Positions 6,423 through 22,356 are shown, counted from the stretch's first letter. The stretch: DNA of 32,000 bases from Pyrodictium delaneyi (GCF_001412615.1 NZ_CP013011.1:120001-152000), one strand, 5' to 3'. Notes: generated from the sequence alone by a model not told the origin. Translations and numbers: made by a program.

Positions 6423-7811
6423 GTGCATATAGAGTTGGACGAGATAATGGATGTTCTCGCGTCAGCCATATCTTACGCGTCGCGAATGGGTGTAGAGTTT
6501 GCAGAAATACGCATCGAACGCACCAGATTTACACGTATAGAGCTACGTGATGGTGTGATTAACGTTTCATCAGGCATAGACTATGGTGCAGCTGTGCGTG
6601 TCTATGCAAACGGCTCTATAGGATTTGCGTTCACTACTCGTGTAAGCCTAGACTCGCTGCGCCGTGCACTAGAACAAGCTCACGCGCTAGCACGTGCGGC
6701 GCCGGGTAAGCAGACTAAGCCTATGCTTTTTGACCCTGCTGAAGACTTTTATGAGCATCCTGTTAAGAGGAGCATAGAGGATGTACCTATAGACGTGAAG
6801 CTAAAGGACGTGATGGAGCTTGATAAACTTGTAGCAGAGAAAGACTTCGTAAAGTCGAGGTTCATAGTGTATAATGAGCGTAGCGAGGAGCGCTACTATG
6901 CTAGCACAGAGGAGAGGTACCTGGGCGAGAAGCGTGAACTAGTCTACCTCTACGCTTCCCTATTTGGCGCTGAGGCGGGCGTCCGTGGCTCAGCGCACAT
7001 AACGCAAGGCACCATAAAGGGCTATACTCTATGGGAGAAGATGAGCCAGGAGAAGGCGGCCGGGGAGCTCCTTGGGAGGCTTCAGAGGCAACTCCGGGCT
7101 AAAACTCCCAGAGCGGGTAACTTCCCGGTTGTCATAGCTCCTGAAGCTCTTGGTGTCTTCGTGCATGAGGCTTTTGGGCATCTAGCTGAGGCCGACTTGG
7201 TAGAGGCTGGTAGTGCACTCCAGGGCAAGAAGGGTCAGCAAGTAGCCTCCAGCCTAGTCACCATAGTTGACGACCCCGCAGTTGACGATGGCTTTGGCAC
7301 GCTGCGTTACGACGACGAAGGTGTGAAAACAGCTAAAGCTGTTATTGTCGAGAAGGGTATACACCGCCAGATAATGACTGACCGTATCCACGCTGCACTA
7401 CTGGATGCCAAACCTACGGGCAACGCGCGGGCAGAGTCGTTCCGTTATCCGCCTCTAGTCCGTATGAGGAACACGTTGATGCTCCCAGGCGATCATAGCG
7501 TAGAGGAGTTGTTTGAGGGAATAGAGTTCGGCTATTACATAGTATCGACTGCAGGTGGTCAGACAAACATAGATGGAAGCTTCCAGGTAGGAGTAGAGGA
7601 GGCGTACGAGATAGTCAACGGTGAAGTTGGCGAACCGGTGCGCAATCTAAGCATAGTAGGTAATACCCTTGAGACGCTCCTCAACATAGATGCTGTCGCT
7701 AAGGACTTCGGGCTCTTCTACGGTCGCTGCGGTAAGGGACAGCTAGTCTACGTCTCCGACGGTGGCCCACACGTCCGGGTACGCAAAATGACTGTGGGTG
7801 GACGTGAGTAG
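6423..7811 (+). CDS. tldD: TldD-type metalloprotease
   Basis: 462 aa carrying the HExxxH motif HEAFGHLAEAD, the family-typical GNAR..S and a C-terminal G-rich core. It is followed by its usual partner PmbA. The start is GTG 6423, or alternatively ATG ~6448. Confidence 0.85.
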   Translation: MHIELDEIMDVLASAISYASRMGVEFAEIRIERTRFTRIELRDGVINVSSGIDYGAAVRVYANGSIGFAFTTRVSLDSLRRALEQAHALARAAPGKQTKPMLFDPAEDFYEHPVKRSIEDVPIDVKLKDVMELDKLVAEKDFVKSRFIVYNERSEERYYASTEERYLGEKRELVYLYASLFGAEAGVRGSAHITQGTIKGYTLWEKMSQEKAAGELLGRLQRQLRAKTPRAGNFPVVIAPEALGVFVHEAFGHLAEADLVEAGSALQGKKGQQVASSLVTIVDDPAVDDGFGTLRYDDEGVKTAKAVIVEKGIHRQIMTDRIHAALLDAKPTGNARAESFRYPPLVRMRNTLMLPGDHSVEELFEGIEFGYYIVSTAGGQTNIDGSFQVGVEEAYEIVNGEVGEPVRNLSIVGNTLETLLNIDAVAKDFGLFYGRCGKGQLVYVSDGGPHVRVRKMTVGGRE

Positions 7812-7884
7812 CTGTTGCGGCTGCTTTCTCCTAGATGTTCTTTCTTCTTGTCTAGAGCTATGTAATTGGTGGAGGGTTGTGGTT

Positions 7885-9246
7885 ATGTCTAGCCGGGTTA
7901 GCCCCGCAGAGCTAGGTGTCATGGCTGCACGGTGGGCTATACGTGAGGGTGCAACAGAAGCAGAGGTATACGTTTCGGTGGCACGTGGCTATAGCATAGA
8001 CATCAGGACTAACAAGATTGAGACTCTGGAAGTTATAGATGATGCGGGTGTTGGGATAAGGGTGGCTGTTGGTAAGCGGACGGGCTTCGCCTACACTACG
8101 GGGCTCGAGTTCCGGGATGTTAGGGAAGCTGTAGCGAGAGCTGTGAAGCAGGCAAAGGTGGCACCAGAGGACAGGTGGTGGCATGGCTTCCCGGAGCCGA
8201 GTCGCAGCTACCCTGAGCCAGGCAATATCTTCAACCCGGTACTGGCGCGGATAGAGCCCGAGACTGTATTAGAGCATGCGCGCGAGATGCTAGACACAGC
8301 GTCGGCGGTCAGTGACCTCGTGCTTGCTCGTGGAAGTATCTCGGTCTACTGGGTTGAACGCGCAGTAGTTAACACTAATGGGGTCTACCGTATTGACGTA
8401 GGCACGACAGCCGTAGTGACTGCGGGGGTGACTATAAGGAAGGAGGGCCTAGTCACGCCGATGATCTACGAATTTGATGCGAGCCGCGTGGCTATACCCG
8501 AGACTAGCCGTGTAGTAGAGAGAGCTGCAGAAACGGCAAAGCTATGTACAACAATTTACCGTGACCTTCCTACGGGTAGGTACACTGTGGTGCTAGCACC
8601 TAAAGTGCTAGCAGAACTCATGGGGGCTACAGTGCTGTACTCTCTCCGCGGCGACATATACGTGCAGGGTAGGAGCTATTACCGCGACAAGCTGGGCGAG
8701 CAAGCACTCTCTGAGAAGATAACGATAGTAGATGATGGTGTGCTAAAAGGTGGGGACCGCACATGGCGCTTCGACGGCGAGGGTGTAGCAACGGCCAGGA
8801 AAGCCCTTGTGGAGAAGGGCGTCGTTCGTGAATTCATATTCGACAGCTACTGGGCTGGAAGAGCAGGCAGGGAGAGTACTGGGAACGCGTCCAGAGATGG
8901 CTACGCGTCGCGGCCAATACCTGGCTATACAAACATAGTAGTAGAGCCGGGTGATGCAGCTCCCGAAGAACTCCTAGAGGGCAAGGTACTAGTCATACAT
9001 CAGATACAGGGTGCACATACAGCGAGCTCGGACACCGGTGAGTATAGTGTCCTCGCTAATCCGGCCATATACTACGAGAATGGCGAGCCGCGGGGATGGG
9101 TACCAGGCGCAGTCCTAGCTGGCAACTTCTATAGAGAAGTAGCATCTAGTATTGAGATGCTTGGAAAGACCCTAGAGAGGGCCTACCCCGGTGTATACAT
9201 GCCATGGGCTAGGCTCAGTGGTATAACAGTAGCCACCAAAGGTTAG
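7885..9246 (+). CDS. pmbA: PmbA/TldE family protein (TldD partner)
   Basis: A TldD/PmbA-fold paralog lacking HExxxH (GNASRDGY..., HQIQGAHTASSDTGEYS). The ATG at 7885 is preceded by GGTGGAGGG. The track start at 7798 adds an implausible Cys-rich leader that overlaps tldD. Confidence 0.8.
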   Translation: MSSRVSPAELGVMAARWAIREGATEAEVYVSVARGYSIDIRTNKIETLEVIDDAGVGIRVAVGKRTGFAYTTGLEFRDVREAVARAVKQAKVAPEDRWWHGFPEPSRSYPEPGNIFNPVLARIEPETVLEHAREMLDTASAVSDLVLARGSISVYWVERAVVNTNGVYRIDVGTTAVVTAGVTIRKEGLVTPMIYEFDASRVAIPETSRVVERAAETAKLCTTIYRDLPTGRYTVVLAPKVLAELMGATVLYSLRGDIYVQGRSYYRDKLGEQALSEKITIVDDGVLKGGDRTWRFDGEGVATARKALVEKGVVREFIFDSYWAGRAGRESTGNASRDGYASRPIPGYTNIVVEPGDAAPEELLEGKVLVIHQIQGAHTASSDTGEYSVLANPAIYYENGEPRGWVPGAVLAGNFYREVASSIEMLGKTLERAYPGVYMPWARLSGITVATKG

Positions 9247-9283: not shown

Positions 9284-10150
9284 TCAGCAGAGATACTTGA
9301 CTCTGATGTGCCCGGGTCCCCGTATAACATACTCTATTGCTAGAAACTCCTCGGATACACACGCCTCTGACACGCCTAGACGTTGTGCCTCATGTGCAGC
9401 GCTTCTCACGATTTCTACGAGCTTCTCAGCAGCCTCGTTGAGGGGTAGCCTTAGCTCTGCCACGTGTCGTCTTATGAGGGCTGGGTCGGGGAGCACAGCA
9501 ATACCACTGCCTGGAGGCTCAACTCCGGCAGCGCTAAGGCCAGCAGCAGCTAGCACGTAGAGGCTCTGAGGCGCTATCAAATACTTCTTAGCTCCTTTCC
9601 TTTCGATAAGGATGCCTTGTCTACCCGGTACTCTCCGTAGCCCGCTGCTTGGCCAGCAACCTAGACTCCTACTATCAACGCCTAGGCCTAGAGCGGCTGC
9701 CGCCAGTATAGGCTCGGCATGGAAGACTGTAGAGCTATCGGAGAGATGCTCCTCAAAGACTGCAAGCGCCTCAACCTCTTCCTCAAGCATGTCCAGCCAT
9801 GGTCTGTATCGCGGCTCTGTGAGTAATGGTGCTTCCTCACTAGCCTCTTTTAGTTCATAGTACGCATCTACTACGTACTCGTAGAGGGGCTCAAAACCGG
9901 TCACGTGTGCAGCAGGAACAGATGCAAACAATGTTATGAACTCGTCGTCGGCCTTGAAGCCGAGACTTTTGAGGCGGCTAGCAGTATGCTGAATAATCGG
10001 TATAAGCCACGACTCCGGGGCTAGGTATCTGCCACGCTCCTCCCGAACATTATGCATGCCAGCAACTCCAAGTCTAGCCGTAGAGCATTGAGGGGAGCAA
10101 TTATCCTCCCAGCCCTGCTCTGCATGAAACTGGATACACAGCCCCGGCAT
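9284..10150 (-). CDS. hypothetical protein, no recognisable family
   Basis: A long ORF with a normal composition and no motif I recognise. The start is ambiguous among 10243 (overlaps the channel gene), 10150 (MPGL..., sharing CATG with the channel start) and 10057 (MHNV...). Confidence 0.45.
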   Translation of the reverse strand: MPGLCIQFHAEQGWEDNCSPQCSTARLGVAGMHNVREERGRYLAPESWLIPIIQHTASRLKSLGFKADDEFITLFASVPAAHVTGFEPLYEYVVDAYYELKEASEEAPLLTEPRYRPWLDMLEEEVEALAVFEEHLSDSSTVFHAEPILAAAALGLGVDSRSLGCWPSSGLRRVPGRQGILIERKGAKKYLIAPQSLYVLAAAGLSAAGVEPPGSGIAVLPDPALIRRHVAELRLPLNEAAEKLVEIVRSAAHEAQRLGVSEACVSEEFLAIEYVIRGPGHIRVKYLC

Positions 10151-11135
10151 GACGGATAGGTGGCTGTCTGGAGGTGAATTAGCGCTGAAACGGCTAAGGA
10201 TAATAGGCATCGTGCTTGCCACGCTCACAACGATACTCGTCATAAGCGCAGCAATATTCTACATGTTTGAGCGCAGTGCTAACCCGGGCATGAGTTTCCT
10301 TGATGCACTCTACTGGGCGTTCATAACAGCCACGACTATAGGCTATGGTGATATAACACCGACAACTCTCCCCGGCAAAATAGTAGCGATAATAGTAGCT
10401 GTGGCCGGGATAGCAGCTTTCACGGCGCTCATAGGAGTCGTAGCAGACGCTCTTGTCGACAGCGCTACACGGCGCATCCTGGGCGTAGGCAGCGTCAAGA
10501 AACGCGGTCACATAGTTGTCCTAGGCTGGAGCCCGTTAACGCCAGTCTTCATACGAGAACTCAAGTCTAATGTGCCCCAGGCGGACATAGTAATAGTAGA
10601 TGAAAAAGTACCCCTAACAGTAGACGAAAACGTGCAAGTAGTACGTGGCGATCCCTTGGATCGCAACGCGTTAGAGAAGGCCGCTATATCCCAAGCAAGG
10701 TACATCGTAGTCACAGAGCTTGACGACTCACGTGCAGTACTCGAGGTGTTACACGCCCGGAAGGCGAGCAAACAGGCCGACATAATCGCGCTTGTTGTAG
10801 ACGATGAGAATATAGAGATACTAGAGCAAGCTGGGGCAAACCATGTTGTTCCAGTGACTATAGCGGCTATGCTTGCTGCGAGCTTTATCTTCGAGCCCTC
10901 TGTGCCGCAAGTGATAATAGACCTAGCTAGCAGCACCTTGGGCAAAGCAGACGTGATCGAGGAGGATGCCTTACAGTTCGCGGGTATGAGGTTTAGTGAT
11001 GTACTTGTAGAGGCTAAGACTAGGTACAACAAGATACCCATAGCTGTGCGCACTAGTAATGGCGTTGTAGTTAATCCGCCGGGGAACTATGTGATAAAAG
11101 AGGGTGACCGCTTGATATCAATAGTCAACAGCTAG
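10149..11135 (+). CDS. two-TM potassium channel with RCK/TrkA-N and TrkA-C domains (MthK-like)
   Basis: 328 aa. It has the selectivity filter TTIGYGD (10332-10352) between two TM helices, the Rossmann-like HIVVLGWSP, and a C-terminal VIKEGDRLISI. Confidence 0.85.
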   Translation: MTDRWLSGGELALKRLRIIGIVLATLTTILVISAAIFYMFERSANPGMSFLDALYWAFITATTIGYGDITPTTLPGKIVAIIVAVAGIAAFTALIGVVADALVDSATRRILGVGSVKKRGHIVVLGWSPLTPVFIRELKSNVPQADIVIVDEKVPLTVDENVQVVRGDPLDRNALEKAAISQARYIVVTELDDSRAVLEVLHARKASKQADIIALVVDDENIEILEQAGANHVVPVTIAAMLAASFIFEPSVPQVIIDLASSTLGKADVIEEDALQFAGMRFSDVLVEAKTRYNKIPIAVRTSNGVVVNPPGNYVIKEGDRLISIVNS

Positions 11136-12587: not shown

Positions 12588-14342
12588 ATGCATACACCGC
12601 TTTGGCTGGTGCTGCCTACAGTCCTCCTTGTCGTCGTTCTCCTCCTAGCCCCTCTTGCCGTCATGTTTTCGCCGGAGGCCCTCCTTGAGGGTGTTAGGCT
12701 AGCCATAGAGCAGCCTGGAAGCCTTGCTCCAGTAACTAGCAGGCCTGCTGTAGAACTAGTGAAGCTCGGCGACCGGAGCATCATAGTCTTACGGGGGCCG
12801 AGCCTCGGCGTTATACCCAACAGCCTGACCCTAGCGCTAGTAGTGTCTCTAGTCTCGACGCTCCTAGGCTTCCTAGCCGCGTTAGCGGCTCTCCTTTACC
12901 GGGTCCTTAGCCGCGTAGCGACTGTGTTGGTCCTGGTATCGCTGCTCCCATACCCCTTTGTCGAGGCCTATGTCGTGCGTAGGCTGCTTGACCCAGACCA
13001 TGGTCTTGTAAATCTGGTGCTCCGACCGCTCGGCCTAGGCTTGGCTGTGCAGGGCCTAGCTGGCGTAGCGCTCTACCAGGTAACGGTGTTTACGCCAGTA
13101 GCCTTCGTAGTCCTCTATGGCTACGTCTCTGGCCTCAGCCGTGAGGCTGTAGAGGCTGCGCTACAGCTAGGGGCCCGTGGGCTGCAACTAGCTAGGCTTG
13201 TCGCCCGTCTCTCCGGCCCGGCTCTCGCAGCCTCGGCGGCGCTGACAGCAGTACTAAGCCTCGACGATGTAGCTGGGCCACTCGTTTTCCAGATGGATCC
13301 GGGCGCTAGGAGCCTGTTGGCCTACCGGGCCTATAGTTACTTCATGGAGTCTGTAACCGGTACTGTGTCACCCACAGCGCTGGGCTACAGTGTGATACTG
13401 TTGACGGCGTCACTAGCGATCTTCCTTGCCGGCTACCCCTTCATAGCCCGGACCTACCGTGGGCTCCAGTCAGGCGGCCGGTATGAGGGCCTACTACCAC
13501 GACTCGACAGGCACGCGCTGGGAGCCCTTACAGTCCTGGTTGTTGCCCTGGGGCTCCCGGCGCTGGTAAAACTTCTAGCCATACTCTATGGGATTAGTGG
13601 TAGCTGGGTCGCCTCTCCCCTCCCAAGCCCCGGCCTAGACTCTCTAAGGATGCTGGCAGGTATGCCAGACGTAGCGCGTGGTATCGCTAACAGTCTTCTC
13701 TACACCTCTATAGCGCTGGCAGCATCCATGGCCCTAGTGCTGCCGGCAGCTCACGTACTTGCGCGGAGAACGGGACACTTAGCAGTCCTAGCCGACGCCT
13801 TGATAGACATGCCTGTAGCTGTGCCAGGCATAGTCATGGCTTATGCGTACTACATAGTCTTTCACAGCCTCTTCGCGGACACCCCACTGGACCCGATAAC
13901 AAGCCCATGGATCTACCTTGTAGCTGGGTATACTGTGCGCAGGATCCCACTACTCTACAAGGCGGCTCAAGCCGTAGTAGCCTCGATACCGGTCGAGCTA
14001 GAGGAGGCAGCAGCCGCACTAGGAGCGGGAGCAGGCCAGATCGAGAGAGCGGTAATCGCGCCACTAGCTATCCAGAGGCTATACCCAGCCATCGTATTTA
14101 CGGGACTGAGTATAGCTACAGAGGTGAGCCTCTCAATAACCATCGGTGGCCTAGCGGGCTCTAGTGGGTTCACGCATTCAGCACCTCTCATGTATCTTGT
14201 AGCTGGCTACATGAGCTACGGTGGGCTCGTATATGCAGGTGTGCTCGCCCTAGCAACCACTGTGCTCCATGCCGGGGTTGTAGCCCTAGCCGTCCTCGAG
14301 GCCAAGCTAGCCCTAATAGTCCTCAGGAAGAGCTACCGGTAG
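12588..14342 (+). CDS. ABC transporter permease, duplicated (two-module) FbpB/ThiP-like
   Basis: 584 aa and polytopic. It has two EAA-type loops: EAALQLGARGLQLARLV and LEEAAAALGAGAGQIERAVIAPL. Confidence 0.75.
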   Translation: MHTPLWLVLPTVLLVVVLLLAPLAVMFSPEALLEGVRLAIEQPGSLAPVTSRPAVELVKLGDRSIIVLRGPSLGVIPNSLTLALVVSLVSTLLGFLAALAALLYRVLSRVATVLVLVSLLPYPFVEAYVVRRLLDPDHGLVNLVLRPLGLGLAVQGLAGVALYQVTVFTPVAFVVLYGYVSGLSREAVEAALQLGARGLQLARLVARLSGPALAASAALTAVLSLDDVAGPLVFQMDPGARSLLAYRAYSYFMESVTGTVSPTALGYSVILLTASLAIFLAGYPFIARTYRGLQSGGRYEGLLPRLDRHALGALTVLVVALGLPALVKLLAILYGISGSWVASPLPSPGLDSLRMLAGMPDVARGIANSLLYTSIALAASMALVLPAAHVLARRTGHLAVLADALIDMPVAVPGIVMAYAYYIVFHSLFADTPLDPITSPWIYLVAGYTVRRIPLLYKAAQAVVASIPVELEEAAAALGAGAGQIERAVIAPLAIQRLYPAIVFTGLSIATEVSLSITIGGLAGSSGFTHSAPLMYLVAGYMSYGGLVYAGVLALATTVLHAGVVALAVLEAKLALIVLRKSYR

Positions 14343-15599
14343 TCCCGCCCGCTGCGCCCTCAACGCTAGCTCGGCAGCCTTCCAGGGGTCGTCCAGCTCC
14401 GGTGCGTTAACGCCCTCTTGCCAGGCACGTCGGTACATCTCTGAGATTCTCTCGGCCCTTAGCTCCTCCAGCTCCTCCCTTCCCTCCAGGATCTTCTTAG
14501 CGTATAGCAGAGGCTTTGCATCCCTAGCGCTGAACCGCCACAGATGTTGTTCCCGGAACTCCTCTAGGCTAGTCCAGCTATACCATCGCCTCCACATCTT
14601 CTCGAACACGGCATCAATTAGCCCCGGGTCCTCTAGGGATGGTATACTCTCGAACTCGTGGAGCGCCTTGTAGGGACAGAGAGCACAGGCAACACGCGGC
14701 ACACCATCTAGATAGTCTGGATGGACTAACTCTGCCTCTCGGACAATCGCCACTATATCGGGTAGTGTGAACATGTATGTCGGCCGGAACTTCCTACCGG
14801 TGAGGACTACTCGGCTAGCAGCAGCTTTTGAGAGTCGCTCAAACCTCTTTGGCGACTCTGTGAGCCTATCGCCTATCACCTCTATCAGCTTCGGGTCTTT
14901 CTTCCTAGCCTCCCTCATCGGCTTGGCTTTGTACACAGTGCAGAACCTATAGCCGCGCCGAGGCATGCCCTTCCACTTGAGGAGACTCTTCATATCCCTC
15001 CGCGGGGCGGATCTTACGTCGACAGTAATGCCTAGCCGTGATGCAAGCTTCTCGACGAATTCGACGCTACGCGGGCTCTCCAGGAACGGTATATGGATGA
15101 ACATCACATGGAGTCGGAAGTCTACATACTCTTGTAGCTTGAGGAGTGTGAGGAGTGCGGCCACAGAGTCCTTGCCGCCGCTAAAGCCCAGGAGCACAGT
15201 CCTGCCACGCAGCTCTCTACCGACCATGCGGACAAGCATCCTAGCATACTCGTCGAGGTCAGGAACGGCTCTGGCATGAACGTATGGCGGGGAAGAGAGC
15301 CATGGCCTTACTGGCGCAAAACCACGCCCGCGCCCGGCATCTACTTCCAGTATGCCTCTACGGTTGAGGAGCCCGGTAACATCCAGGGCCCGGCTCCTGG
15401 AGACCCATAGGTAGTAGCGGCAGCTACCGTCAACGTTACAGATCTTTGTAGCGTCGCCCCCACTGCCTACTACTCCACGTAGCTCGCCCCTCTCTATAAC
15501 AGGGTACAATTCAGTCATTGCATGATCACCGCCGTCGGCAACGATGCCCCAGTGTGCTCCGTAGTGGTCAGGGACGGGTGTAGGGGGCGGTCTCCTCAT
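14313..15599 (-). CDS. PAPS reductase/DndC-like PP-loop ATPase family protein, paralog 1
   Basis: 428 aa. Motifs are the PP-loop FSGGKDS (rc 15165-15182), RFCTVYKAKP, VIGDRLTESPKRF and ACALCP. The N-terminal ~110 aa and the ~115 aa C-terminal tail are unassigned. An alternative ATG start is at 15518 (MTELYPV). Confidence 0.75.
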   Translation of the reverse strand: MRRPPPTPVPDHYGAHWGIVADGGDHAMTELYPVIERGELRGVVGSGGDATKICNVDGSCRYYLWVSRSRALDVTGLLNRRGILEVDAGRGRGFAPVRPWLSSPPYVHARAVPDLDEYARMLVRMVGRELRGRTVLLGFSGGKDSVAALLTLLKLQEYVDFRLHVMFIHIPFLESPRSVEFVEKLASRLGITVDVRSAPRRDMKSLLKWKGMPRRGYRFCTVYKAKPMREARKKDPKLIEVIGDRLTESPKRFERLSKAAASRVVLTGRKFRPTYMFTLPDIVAIVREAELVHPDYLDGVPRVACALCPYKALHEFESIPSLEDPGLIDAVFEKMWRRWYSWTSLEEFREQHLWRFSARDAKPLLYAKKILEGREELEELRAERISEMYRRAWQEGVNAPELDDPWKAAELALRAQRAGLPVALPEDY

Positions 15600-15607
15600 A
15601 CCCGGGG

Positions 15608-15647
15608 CCTCGGTGGCTCAACCCTTCATCAGCCCGAGCCCGGGGCT
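15608..15647. repeat. GC-rich motif block, copy 1 (CCTC-GGTGGC-N-GAGCCCGGGGCT)
   Basis: CCTCGGTGGCTCAACCCTTCATCAGCCCGAGCCCGGGGCT shares collinear blocks CCTC, GGTGGC and the 12-mer GAGCCCGGGGCT with 17293-17326. The statistical support is weak. Confidence 0.25.
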
Positions 15648-15657
15648 ATGCTTACAC

Positions 15658-15674
15658 CTATAGTCGCCTATATC
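15658..15674. promoter_or_regulatory. only A/T-containing patch in the divergent spacer (CTATAG..CTATATC); possible bidirectional TATA
   Basis: The region between the two PP-loop genes is otherwise G+C-rich. CTATAGTCGCCTATATC is the only TATA-like candidate on either strand. Confidence 0.25.
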
Positions 15675-15758
15675 AGCCCCTCCACAGCCGTCTACACATC
15701 GTAGGGGTGCGCCGGGGACCGGGCCTCCGTCGAGAGGAGACTGGGTGCGCGAACAGCC

Positions 15759-17192
15759 ATGTTCACCATCGTAACGAGGAGTAAACGCGATGCAGACGCC
15801 GTAAAAGCTATGATTGAGCGCTTCTATCCAGGCTGGGGTATAGACGTCAAGACGCTCCATGGGGCGCGCAGCGGCGAGGCAATGCTGCGCGAGCTATCCG
15901 GCATTATCGAGCCAGACCGCTTCTACATAGTACTTCTCGGCAGGGAGGATCGGCGCGCGGCAAGAGAGCTCATCGAGGAGGTGCCGCCTAACGTCGTAGT
16001 ACACGTGGTGCCGCGGTCTCGGGTAAGGAATGCGAGGCTTGAGCTGCTCTACGCGGAGGTAGCTCGTGCCCGTGCCGTCATCAGAGTAACCGCGGTCTGG
16101 GACGAAGCTAGGAAGGTGTTTCTCCTAGGTCCTCGCCGGCGTGGCCAGCCCCTGGAGGGCTTGGAGCCCCAGCCTAGCTTTGACAACTTCATCGGTTTAG
16201 GTAGGTTTGCGAAGATAGTATCGAGGCTCGCAGGGGGTCGAATCGGCCTCAACCCCCTGGTAGTCCGTACACGGGGCGGCTTGCACCTAGTCTACAACGG
16301 GCCTAAGCCGCGGGCCGAGCTAGAGGTTAGGGATGAAGGACTCACGCCTCAGGCACGCATAGTCGGAGACGATGAGCCAGTGGATGTGAACCTTGAGGCA
16401 ATGGTGGAGGCGAACCGGAGCATACTCCAGCTCTACGAGCGGGCTTCCCTAAGGTTCCTAGAGAGCCTGGGAGAGTTCGACACAATAGTTGTGCCCTGGA
16501 GTGGGGGCAAGGACAGTACAGCAATACTTCTACTTGCCATAACCCTCTATGGCCGTGATAAGGTGCGTGTAGTCTACGGCGATACTGGCACGGAGTTCCC
16601 TCTCTCCAAGCACTATGTTGAGGAGCTGGCCCAGAAGCTCGGCATAGAATACGTAGAGGCTTACGGCGGCGTCGATAAGATGCTGCTCGAGGGCGTAGCA
16701 CCCATGCCGACGCATAGTAATAGATGGTGTACCGGGCTCAAAGTGGCAGCGATAGAAGGCGTTGTAAAGAAGCTTGCAGAAGGTCGGACGCTCCTCCTCG
16801 TAGGTGATCGTGACGCCGAATCGCCGCGCCGGAGCGCGCGGCCCCCTGTTAGGCCGGGCCCAGCAGACAACATAACCATGGCGGCGCCGATCAAGCTCTG
16901 GGGAGGAGCACACGTACAGCTCTACGTGCTGTCGAAGGGTGTACCGCTAAACCCCATGTATGAGTACGGCTTCTATCGGATAGGTTGCTATATGTGTCCG
17001 GCCCTACGTAACTGGGAGCTGCACGTGCTGACGACGACGCCTAGGCTGCACCTACAGCTGCTGCGTAGCCCTATCTACAGACGCTTCGTCATGATGCGGT
17101 TACGCGGCAAGACTAAGGCGGCGGATTTTGAGCCGGAAGAGGAGGCGGCTTGTAGCTTCTCGTCGAGCGTTGTGACCGACTGTGGCTACTAG
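15759..17192 (+). CDS. PAPS reductase/DndC-like PP-loop ATPase family protein, paralog 2
   Basis: 477 aa. Motifs are the PP-loop WSGGKDS (16500-16517), RWCTGLKVAA, LVGDRDAESPRRS and GCYMCP (~16985-16999). A ~245 aa N-terminal region is unassigned. Confidence 0.75.
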   Translation: MFTIVTRSKRDADAVKAMIERFYPGWGIDVKTLHGARSGEAMLRELSGIIEPDRFYIVLLGREDRRAARELIEEVPPNVVVHVVPRSRVRNARLELLYAEVARARAVIRVTAVWDEARKVFLLGPRRRGQPLEGLEPQPSFDNFIGLGRFAKIVSRLAGGRIGLNPLVVRTRGGLHLVYNGPKPRAELEVRDEGLTPQARIVGDDEPVDVNLEAMVEANRSILQLYERASLRFLESLGEFDTIVVPWSGGKDSTAILLLAITLYGRDKVRVVYGDTGTEFPLSKHYVEELAQKLGIEYVEAYGGVDKMLLEGVAPMPTHSNRWCTGLKVAAIEGVVKKLAEGRTLLLVGDRDAESPRRSARPPVRPGPADNITMAAPIKLWGGAHVQLYVLSKGVPLNPMYEYGFYRIGCYMCPALRNWELHVLTTTPRLHLQLLRSPIYRRFVMMRLRGKTKAADFEPEEEAACSFSSSVVTDCGY

Positions 17193-21558: not shown

Positions 21559-22356
21559 ATGGTAATAAGTTCGATGCATGGTAAGTATGCAGAATACATT
21601 AAGAACTTCTTAGAAGATATTGCTAAGCTTCCTAGTGAGCAATTTACACAAGTCATACAAGCTGTACAGGAAAAGGATGTCCTAGACTTAGCCGTAGTAT
21701 ACACGGCAGCTGTTACTCGGCTCTCTAGCTTATGGTTAATATGGGAGGACTACTGCAGAGAGAGCGTAAGTAAGCCCATCTGTACAGAAATAAAGGAAAT
21801 TGTGGAGCATGCAGGCCGCGACATGGGAGTGGTAACCTTCTTTAATGGTGAAATAAAGACTCTAGTGGTTAAGCTATTCCATGACCTATCTCCGGGCATT
21901 TTTGTACCCGGCTGGGTCCTAGCCTACTCTGTACGCCTCGGGAGACCTTTAGCGTCAAAACTCCGCGAACTGAGTATAGAGGAGCAAGCAGCAAGGTTAC
22001 CTGGCTTTGTAGCTTCCTTCTACGTACTCGATGCTATGGAGAAGGCCATGCTTGATTACTACTCTTCAAAAGGCTCTGATTTTGCATATGCAACTGCGGG
22101 ATATATATACTGGGAAATAATTAAGCCATGTACTCTGCTTCCTGAAGTGTTCGCTGAAGGTATAGGTTCCACGACAAGTTTACCACAGATACACAATAGA
22201 GTCTATATAGAAGTCCAAGAGAGTCTTCTTCGGGACGACACACAGCCACCTAAAATAGATTATGCAGAGTACATAGGCCAAGCTCTGAAAGAGGCGAAAG
22301 AAGCATTAATGGAAGAATTGAAGAGGAAAAGATTCCAGTTGAACAAAAACACGTAG
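21559..22356 (+). CDS. hypothetical protein (orphan) in low-GC island
   Basis: A 265-aa ORF with plausible composition and a Lys/Glu-rich C-terminal helix (KEAKEALMEELKRKRFQ). I recognise no family. GGGGAGGG lies about 15 nt upstream of the start. Confidence 0.5.
   Translation: MVISSMHGKYAEYIKNFLEDIAKLPSEQFTQVIQAVQEKDVLDLAVVYTAAVTRLSSLWLIWEDYCRESVSKPICTEIKEIVEHAGRDMGVVTFFNGEIKTLVVKLFHDLSPGIFVPGWVLAYSVRLGRPLASKLRELSIEEQAARLPGFVASFYVLDAMEKAMLDYYSSKGSDFAYATAGYIYWEIIKPCTLLPEVFAEGIGSTTSLPQIHNRVYIEVQESLLRDDTQPPKIDYAEYIGQALKEAKEALMEELKRKRFQLNKNT

Follow-up and report, generated by a model that had tools for sequence, protein, structure and literature searches.

A stretch of 32,000 nt of the Pyrodictium delaneyi chromosome (the window) carries two divergently oriented genes encoding proteins with a PP-loop core, here called protein 1 and protein 2. 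An earlier description made from the DNA alone (the sequence-only reading) had presented them as diverged paralogues of the 3'-phosphoadenosine 5'-phosphosulfate (PAPS) reductase/DndC type and had suggested that they form a two-subunit enzyme. Both open reading frames (ORFs), of 428 and 477 aa, are present where that reading placed them, as is every motif it listed: SGGKDS, RFCT/RWCT, GDR..ESP.R and CALCP/CYMCP. The features of the locus are collected in Table 1, in which residue numbers of protein 1 follow the 428-aa numbering.

Table 1. Features of the two PP-loop genes and their spacer; positions are counted from the first nucleotide of the window
Feature	Position	Strand	Basis and remarks
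Protein 1 gene as deposited, ALL00205.1, 428 aa	14313-15599	-	ORF call; exact match to P. delaneyi entry
Protein 1 likely true gene, 401 aa from Met28, clade 1a	14313-15518	-	Homologue starts; start codon verified
Protein 1 N-terminal all-beta domain, ~87 aa	15258-15518	-	Seven predicted strands (AlphaFold2, AF2); E, P and W invariant within the family
Protein 1 SGGKDS PP-loop, ATP pyrophosphatase signature	15165-15182	-	Invariant in 29 family members
Protein 1 PAPS_reduct/PP-loop core	14673-15194	-	PF01507, residues 136-309
Protein 1 invariant Cys, candidate [4Fe-4S] ligands	C220 14940-14942; C305 14685-14687; C308 14676-14678	-	Alignment; codons verified
Protein 1 C-terminal helical domain, ~108 aa	14316-14639	-	AF2 helices; invariant W-R and W; acidic, isoelectric point (pI) 5.0
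Conserved non-coding element, ~65 nt	15568-15632	-	Upstream of protein 1, co-oriented
Protein 2 gene, Pyrde_0156 / ALL00206.1, 477 aa	15759-17192	+	ORF call; 100% match
Protein 2 N-terminal region, residues 1-238	15759-16472	+	Alpha/beta 1-110, beta-rich 111-205, linker helices; pI >10
Protein 2 PAPS_reduct/PP-loop core	16485-17003	+	PF01507, residues 243-415
Protein 2 SGGKDS PP-loop	16500-16517	+	Invariant in 26 family members
Protein 2 invariant Cys, candidate [4Fe-4S] ligands	C324 16728-16730; C410 16986-16988; C413 16995-16997	+	Alignment; codons verified
Protein 2 disordered acidic C-terminal tail, two Cys (…AACSF…TDCGY)	17112-17189	+	Predicted local distance difference test (pLDDT) <50, residues 452-477

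The deposited start of protein 1 (ATG at 15599, ALL00205.1) is probably wrong. Translation likely begins at Met28 (ATG 15518-15516), because the ~90 homologues, of ~401 aa, start with the residues MTELYP and the 27 codons ahead of Met28 show no coding conservation in relatives. The surplus stretch (15519-15599, minus strand) overlaps the conserved non-coding element, and the sequence upstream of the protein 1 gene in the related locus L006 contains an in-frame stop, as read by eye. With the Met28 start the divergent arrangement stands, with a spacer of 240 bp instead of the 159 bp given by the sequence-only reading. The extra N-terminal region of protein 1 likewise exists but comprises ~87 aa instead of ~110 aa.

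The profile search against Pfam PF01507 proposed in the sequence-only reading placed both proteins above the gathering cut-off of 22.5 bits (protein 1, E 7.6e-10 and 39.5 bits; protein 2, E 3.2e-27 and 96.1 bits). The two proteins share 28% identity across 197 aa (E 6e-12), and an hhalign comparison of their families gave a probability of 99.5% over 169 columns, all within the core. Judged from these alignments, their homology is far above chance; the PF01507 matches and the pairwise homology bear out the description of both as diverged paralogues with a PAPS-reductase/DndC-type PP-loop core.

Structural comparisons agree in locating the resemblance to known enzymes in the core. The AF2 monomer models have pLDDT values of 95.0 (protein 1) and 91.8 (protein 2), and in Foldseek searches of the PDB both match through the PP-loop core only. 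The core of protein 2 matches PAPS and adenosine 5'-phosphosulfate (APS) reductases, GMP synthase, FAD synthase and TtuA. The best matches of the protein 1 core are NcsA (6scy), TilS and TtuA (5mkq), with 5ztb also a top neighbour, and further neighbours across both proteins are NAD synthetase, QueC, human FAD synthase and TtuA 5b4f. Foldseek probabilities of 1.0 to PAPS/APS reductases, GMP synthase, TilS, TtuA and NcsA assign the cores to the adenine-nucleotide alpha-hydrolase fold.

All catalytic motifs are intact in both proteins. In a profile search against solved structures, the SGGKDS of protein 2 aligns with the PP-loop of CysD, and matches to LarE, QueC and GMP synthase span the same segment; the four printed alignments with APS/PAPS reductases begin downstream of it. 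There is evidence at the level of motifs that both proteins would use ATP and not a sulfonucleotide.

Each family has exactly three invariant cysteines, one in R-x-C-T and two in C-x-x-C-P, and those of protein 1 correspond to those of protein 2 in the hhalign alignment. The three-cysteine site that the sequence-only reading had proposed for each protein aligns with three of the four cluster ligands of the Mycobacterium tuberculosis APS reductase (7lhr): C324 of protein 2 falls on the second Cys of ECC, and C410 and C413 fall on the CxxC. At the remaining position of the CC…CxxC site, the first Cys of the CC pair, the families have Trp or Phe. In the PP-loop enzyme DndC, a 4Fe-4S centre is coordinated by three cysteines (PMC10853773). 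Each of the two proteins most likely binds a [4Fe-4S] cluster through its three aligned cysteines, which would leave one iron free.

Of the 118 protein 2 orthologues, 37 have a Cys among their final four positions and most have none there, and the tail Cys appears to be lineage-specific. In these orthologues, about one third of the total, the tail is disordered and acidic, with two Cys, and it ends in C-G(-x). Such a tail could serve as a mobile arm that carries a persulfide, or as a catalytic tail of the reductase kind. A Cys-Gly tail acting as a persulfide arm throughout the protein 2 family was rejected, because so few members have it.

The accessory regions set the two families apart from known enzymes and from each other. 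Searched against Pfam, those of both proteins gave zero matches even at E <= 10, and a profile of the protein 2 N-terminal region had no match among PDB sequences. Hhalign detected no homology between the accessory domains of protein 1 and those of protein 2, the N-terminal domains included, and aligned the core only. These regions are thus as unassigned as the sequence-only reading had left them. Whole-chain Foldseek searches of the PDB and BFVD for the identity of the N-terminal domain of protein 2 returned core matches only. A hidden Markov model (HMM) of the protein 2 N-terminal region, run exhaustively against 1.84 billion representative proteins, retrieved 95 clusters. The region appears to be exclusive to the protein 2 family, because all of these clusters have the same architecture or are fragments. 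Its invariant residues are R7, D11, W26, G35, R37, G61-R62-E63, R90, R93, R109, W114, H176, G181 and N219. Residues 1-110 (15759-16088) make up a four-stranded alpha/beta unit with conserved acidic and basic residues at the strand ends (VRSKRD…, LLGRED). Foldseek against BFVD gave protein 2 a pair of very weak matches to TOPRIM-domain primases (probability 0.2-0.3), taken as a lead only and not counted as evidence.

Protein 2 is a full-length member of the NCBIfam family NF006351 (PRK08576), scoring 517 bits against a cut-off of 290 over residues 1-444 of 477. The sequence-only reading had set a clean fit to a characterised orthologous group against its proposal. Protein 2 does fit cleanly into an orthologous group, but this group, NF006351, is annotated 'hypothetical protein', with no function assigned. 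The same model is the best NCBIfam match of protein 1 at 79 bits, in the core only and under the cut-off, and protein 1 is a member of no curated family.

Among solved structures, the best profile match is to assimilatory APS reductases (7lhr, 2goy; E 5.5e-11), which share the core fold. The two proteins might then be thioredoxin-type assimilatory APS/PAPS reductases with added domains, converting activated sulfate to sulfite; PF01507 is named after that activity, their cysteines coincide in alignment with cluster ligands of APS reductase, and the flexible tail of some protein 2 orthologues, with its terminal Cys-Gly, recalls the catalytic ECGLH tail. However, this is very improbable. The CysH and APS-reductase models TIGR00434, TIGR02055, TIGR02057 and NF002537 score protein 2 at just 16-39 bits against cut-offs of 154-254 and do not match protein 1, and the canonical SGGKDS lies outside the four reductase alignments. 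The reductase has four cluster ligands, of which three are found here. A conserved C-terminal catalytic Cys of the ECGLH type is lacking, since the protein 1 family has no conserved Cys past CxxCP and the tail Cys of protein 2 is confined to the minority of orthologues described above. Genes for sulfurylase, APS kinase and sulfite reductase are absent from the window and from the conserved neighbourhoods. The hosts, moreover, are sulfide-rich anaerobic hyperthermophiles, which also speaks against sulfate reduction of this kind.

DndC resembles both proteins in its PAPS-reductase-type PP-loop core, its intact ATP motif and its three conserved cysteines, which hold a 4Fe-4S centre (PMC10853773). 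PADLOC matched protein 2 to BrxP (E 1e-28, profile positions 96-324 of 779) and SspD (E 5e-13), both through the core only. The PADLOC matches to DndC were weak (E 1.6e-6 and 0.005), and phage PAPS-reductase-like proteins are among the structural neighbours. These likenesses would suit stand-alone DNA modifiers of the DndC/SspD/BrxP kind, for example for backbone phosphorothioation, within a defence or epigenetic system. Such a role is nevertheless improbable, for the likeness ends at the shared core. The DndC model TIGR03183 gives protein 2 21.4 bits against a cut-off of 290 and does not match protein 1, and DndC differs in its accessory domains, its DndA/B/D/E partners and its defence-island setting. 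The window holds no Dnd, Ssp, BREX, nuclease or mobile-element genes, and its annotation likewise confirms the earlier statement that sulfate-assimilation, Dnd and BREX partners are missing. A Pfam survey of 113 ORFs flanking protein 2 orthologues found no sulfate-assimilation genes and no DndB/D/E, SspABC or BREX genes, nor do these ~110 genes include nuclease or mobile-element genes; thus BrxP (of BREX type 4) and SspD also lack their partners near proteins 1 and 2. Vertical conservation, stable housekeeping synteny and uniform GC are further features unlike those of defence islands.

TtuA, NcsA and TtcA are PP-loop ATPases in which a three-Cys cluster activates sulfide, which is the mechanism proposed here, and they are top structural neighbours of protein 1. 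However, they belong to another PP-loop branch (PF01171), for which protein 1 scores 23.7 bits against a gathering threshold of 27 and protein 2 has no match. They also have zinc-finger domains not present here, and the TM-scores are just 0.3-0.46. The TtuA-type cysteine order is CxxC…C, opposite to the C…CxxC of proteins 1 and 2. Membership of CysH, DndC, SspD, BrxP or TtuA was rejected in every case, on curated cut-offs or full-length match and on context. On these comparisons, the two enzymes appear to resemble Fe-S PP-loop enzymes in their working, and they belong to no characterised family. Literature searches on either protein family or its locus tags found general DndC/APS-reductase background only.

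The distribution of the two families bears on the relation between the proteins. Species-representative genomes were scanned with the protein 2 alignment, and 80 loci were kept with flanks of up to 10 kb where the contig allows. A protein 1-type gene lies adjacent and divergent to the protein 2 gene in just five of the ~75 archaeal loci (L001 and L003-L006), all metagenome-assembled genomes (MAGs) of Pyrodictiaceae/Hyperthermus, and also in Pyrodictium occultum (L172). In L013 the two genes are ~5 kb apart. The remaining ~70 protein 2 loci have no protein 1-type gene within the fetched flank; they come from Desulfurococcales, Acidilobales, Thermoproteales, Thermofilaceae, Ignicoccus, Thermococcus, Bathyarchaeota, Culexarchaeia and others. 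Conversely, the protein 1-type genes of Pyrolobus fumarii, Pyrofollis japonicus, Ignicoccus pacificus, a Njordarchaeote and several MAGs never stand beside a protein 2 gene. Clustering of the ORFs from 81 loci showed that in the pair-keeping clade Hel308, TIP49 and the ABC transporter are conserved as often as the pair itself. The head-to-head arrangement is thus ordinary synteny, a remnant limited to the Pyrodictium/Hyperthermus clade, because unrelated neighbours are equally well conserved. At most, the divergent layout allows co-regulation from the common spacer.

If proteins 1 and 2 together made up a single heteromeric enzyme for the thiolation or adenylation of nucleic acids, akin to the eukaryotic Ctu1-Ctu2, this would fit the adjacent and divergent placement of their genes, a short distance apart, in P. 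delaneyi, P. occultum and the five related MAG loci; the two proteins are also mutually closest paralogues among the NCBIfam models. However, there is little probability of such an enzyme. Protein 2 occurs across many orders with no protein 1 nearby and protein 1 relatives occur apart from protein 2; lineages with protein 2 (Aeropyrum, Staphylothermus, Thermococcus, Archaeoglobus) are missing from the named protein 1 matches; and the adjacency, already broken in L013, shows no stronger conservation than that of unrelated neighbours. Furthermore, divergent genes are not co-transcribed, and both proteins keep their catalytic residues, unlike the known active/inactive paralogue pairs of the superfamily. 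The conservation check suggested by the sequence-only reading thus leaves its two-subunit hypothesis unsupported, since the pair is limited to one clade (the window and the six adjacent loci named above) and each family occurs apart.

The protein 2 family is restricted to hyperthermophiles of the Thermoproteota, the Thermococcales and Archaeoglobus. Its orthologues include APE_2075 of Aeropyrum pernix and proteins of Hyperthermus, Staphylothermus, Pyrococcus horikoshii/abyssi, P. yayanosii and Archaeoglobus profundus, together with Thermococcus onnurineus, T. barophilus, T. sp. AM4 and other Thermococcus species. The named matches of protein 1 include none from Aeropyrum, Staphylothermus, Thermococcus, P. 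horikoshii/abyssi or Archaeoglobus. In a metagenome scan with the protein 1 alignment, 8 of the 80 loci held true family members and the others distant PP-loop proteins. A neighbour-joining tree of the protein 1 matches resolved clade 1a, which holds the window protein, clade 1b and a third group, and the Pyrodictiaceae probably hold at least three paralogues, all with the catalytic motifs. Clade 1b, at 34-41% identity to protein 1, is a third paralogue clade in this family of organisms; its member P0081 is carried by the MAG contig L171, and the clade 1a protein P0027 is listed with a longest contig of identical length. The 1b gene lies near or beside the genes for the RNA 2'-phosphotransferase Tpt1/PTS_2-RNA and for ALAD (L081:6001-7994, L166:2906-6263, L171:9139-11233), a proximity that may be synteny only, as the loci come from related genomes.

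The genes surrounding the pair in the window have an ordinary chromosomal content with even GC. They encode IMP dehydrogenase (IMPDH), pyrroline-5-carboxylate (P5C) reductase, a rhomboid protease, a TldD/PmbA pair, a K+ channel, an ABC transporter, Hel308, TIP49, asparaginase, FMN reductase, thymidylate kinase, RsmB/F, AMMECR1 and a DRG GTPase, and the window contains no tRNA genes and no Rfam matches at gathering thresholds. The evidence speaks for a housekeeping character of both PP-loop genes. No conserved operon partner of protein 2 was found: the most frequent Pfam family accounts for 4 of the 113 flanking ORFs, and the 81 loci share no conserved cluster. The neighbours of protein 1-type genes are variable, with no conserved operon partner here either, and some belong to translation or RNA metabolism, among them an Asp/Asn-tRNA-synthetase-type gene in L165 and Tpt1 and RsmB in L081, L166 and L171; these are suggestive at most. 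In Pyrolobus fumarii (L083:5699-7239), and in that genome only, a protein 1-type gene follows gatC by 5 bp on the same strand in an operon-like arrangement. GatC is subunit C of the Glu/Asp-tRNA amidotransferase.

Taken as a whole, the reading put forward here, with somewhat less than even confidence, is that both proteins are independent ATP-dependent, Fe-S-assisted sulfur-inserting enzymes with a three-Cys [4Fe-4S] cluster, acting probably on structured RNA. By analogy with TtuA and NcsA, and with what has been proposed for DndC, each protein, alone, would adenylate an oxygen of its substrate with ATP, and sulfide or persulfide bound to the cluster's free iron would then displace the adenylate. 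The choice of substrate would fall to the accessory domains specific to each family, namely the basic, Arg-rich 238-aa N-terminal region in protein 2 and the beta N-terminal domain with the helical C-terminal domain in protein 1. The substrate would most likely be a structured tRNA or rRNA of hyperthermophilic archaea, with a different site for each paralogue. Both proteins have a pI of 9.2-9.5 and the N-terminal domain of protein 2 has many invariant Arg; together with the translation and RNA neighbours, these features are weak hints of an RNA substrate. We infer the presence of the cluster, the sulfur chemistry and the RNA substrate; the class of enzyme can be assigned with far greater certainty than the chemistry or the substrate.

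An unlikely but appreciable alternative is that the proteins carry out adenylation chemistry without sulfur insertion, the cluster or metal being structural. They might serve in RNA amidation or ligation, as do TilS, QueC and GMP synthase, or in adenylyl transfer to a small molecule or cofactor, as do the eukaryotic-type FAD synthase and CysD. The superfamily is chemically diverse, TilS, GMP synthase, NAD synthetase, QueC and human FAD synthase are all Foldseek neighbours, and ALAD/heme genes lie near some loci (L081, L166, L170, L171). However, three strictly invariant Cys occupy a known Fe-S site, and among the PP-loop enzymes compared such a site marks the Fe-S ones (APS reductase, DndC, TtuA/NcsA). 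In addition, neither protein has a glutamine-amidotransferase or other donor domain, and the cofactor-gene neighbours are not conserved.

Several observations weigh against Fe-S-assisted sulfur insertion into RNA by the two proteins. The cluster is read from sequence alone, and the cysteines could be structural, because the homologous APS-reductase cluster, which has four ligands, carries no sulfur. The C…CxxC order is that of APS reductase and not that of TtuA. Sulfur-donor genes (cysteine desulfurase, a ThiS/SAMP-like carrier or rhodanese) are not consistently nearby in the 113 flanking ORFs. The protein 2 family is patchy in the Thermococcales, with T. kodakarensis and P. furiosus not among the named matches, and this spread argues against a core translation role. 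For the RNA substrate, the translation-related neighbours are weak support, being few and mostly from related genomes, and a high pI is common among hyperthermophile proteins. The literature searches found no biochemical or genetic data for either family.

The spacer between the two genes contains a conserved element that is a plausible candidate for a C/D-box small RNA (sRNA), as judged from its layout. This comprises CTGATGA, 12 nt, CCGA, a loop, TGAGGA, GACCGCCCCCT, a variable stretch and CTGA, with AAGGGTTGAGCCA and GACCGCCCCCT as candidate guide segments. The element is conserved in the window, P. occultum (L172:2400-2470, plus strand), L005:9735-9805, L006:4060-4132 and L013:5225-5297 (the last three on the minus strand), where the flanking spacer DNA is unalignable. 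The five loci share an invariant TGATGA (box C-like), a conserved 12-nt segment, degenerate D' and C' boxes, the conserved GACCGCCCCCT and a terminal CTGA (box D-like). In L013 it remains with protein 1 while protein 2 is ~5 kb away. Its sole Rfam match is to a C/D-box family below threshold (18.9 bits against a gathering score of 42, E 0.011), and the C'-to-D spacing of 17-21 nt is atypical compared with 12. The complements of the two conserved segments may resemble neighbouring stretches of archaeal 16S rRNA; none of the 172 loci retrieved contains a 16S gene. A sigma-70 promoter scan was uninformative, the host being an archaeon.

Elsewhere in the window, two ORFs have no Pfam match, one of 319 aa (9284-10243, minus strand) and one of 265 aa (21559-22356, plus strand). 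The former shares ~95 nt with the beginning of the K+ channel gene (10149-11135), and the latter is conserved in five related loci. The tandem TldD/PmbA-type metallopeptidase paralogues (6423-9246, plus strand) overlap by 14 nt and are syntenic as a pair in relatives; the pair also lies near a protein 1-type gene in P. occultum (L172) and Pyrofollis (L081).

The genes were already deposited with generic annotation, and their catalytic core is of a well-known kind. What emerges here are two independent members of archaeal PP-loop families that probably bind an Fe-S cluster, are conserved yet have no assigned function, and possess novel accessory domains; the paired-subunit reading is dropped. 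It is possible, although rather doubtful, that the protein 2 family, clade 1a and clade 1b together form a set of unrecognised Fe-S, ATP-driven modifiers of hyperthermophilic archaea, each directed by novel recognition domains to a distinct tRNA, rRNA or DNA site for thiolation or another adenylation-dependent modification. Orthologues of protein 2 are found in Thermococcus, including species used for genetics (T. barophilus, T. onnurineus), and are apparently absent from T. kodakarensis, so that knockout and gain-of-function tests are feasible. Highly conserved, confined to one architecture and without recognisable relatives, the 238-aa N-terminal region of protein 2 could represent a new module for substrate recognition. 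Should the proposed chemistry hold, the two families would be additions to the few sulfur-inserting PP-loop enzymes with a three-Cys [4Fe-4S] cluster (TtuA/NcsA/TtcA, DndC), and they could explain nucleic-acid modifications of hyperthermophilic archaea for which the enzymes are lacking.

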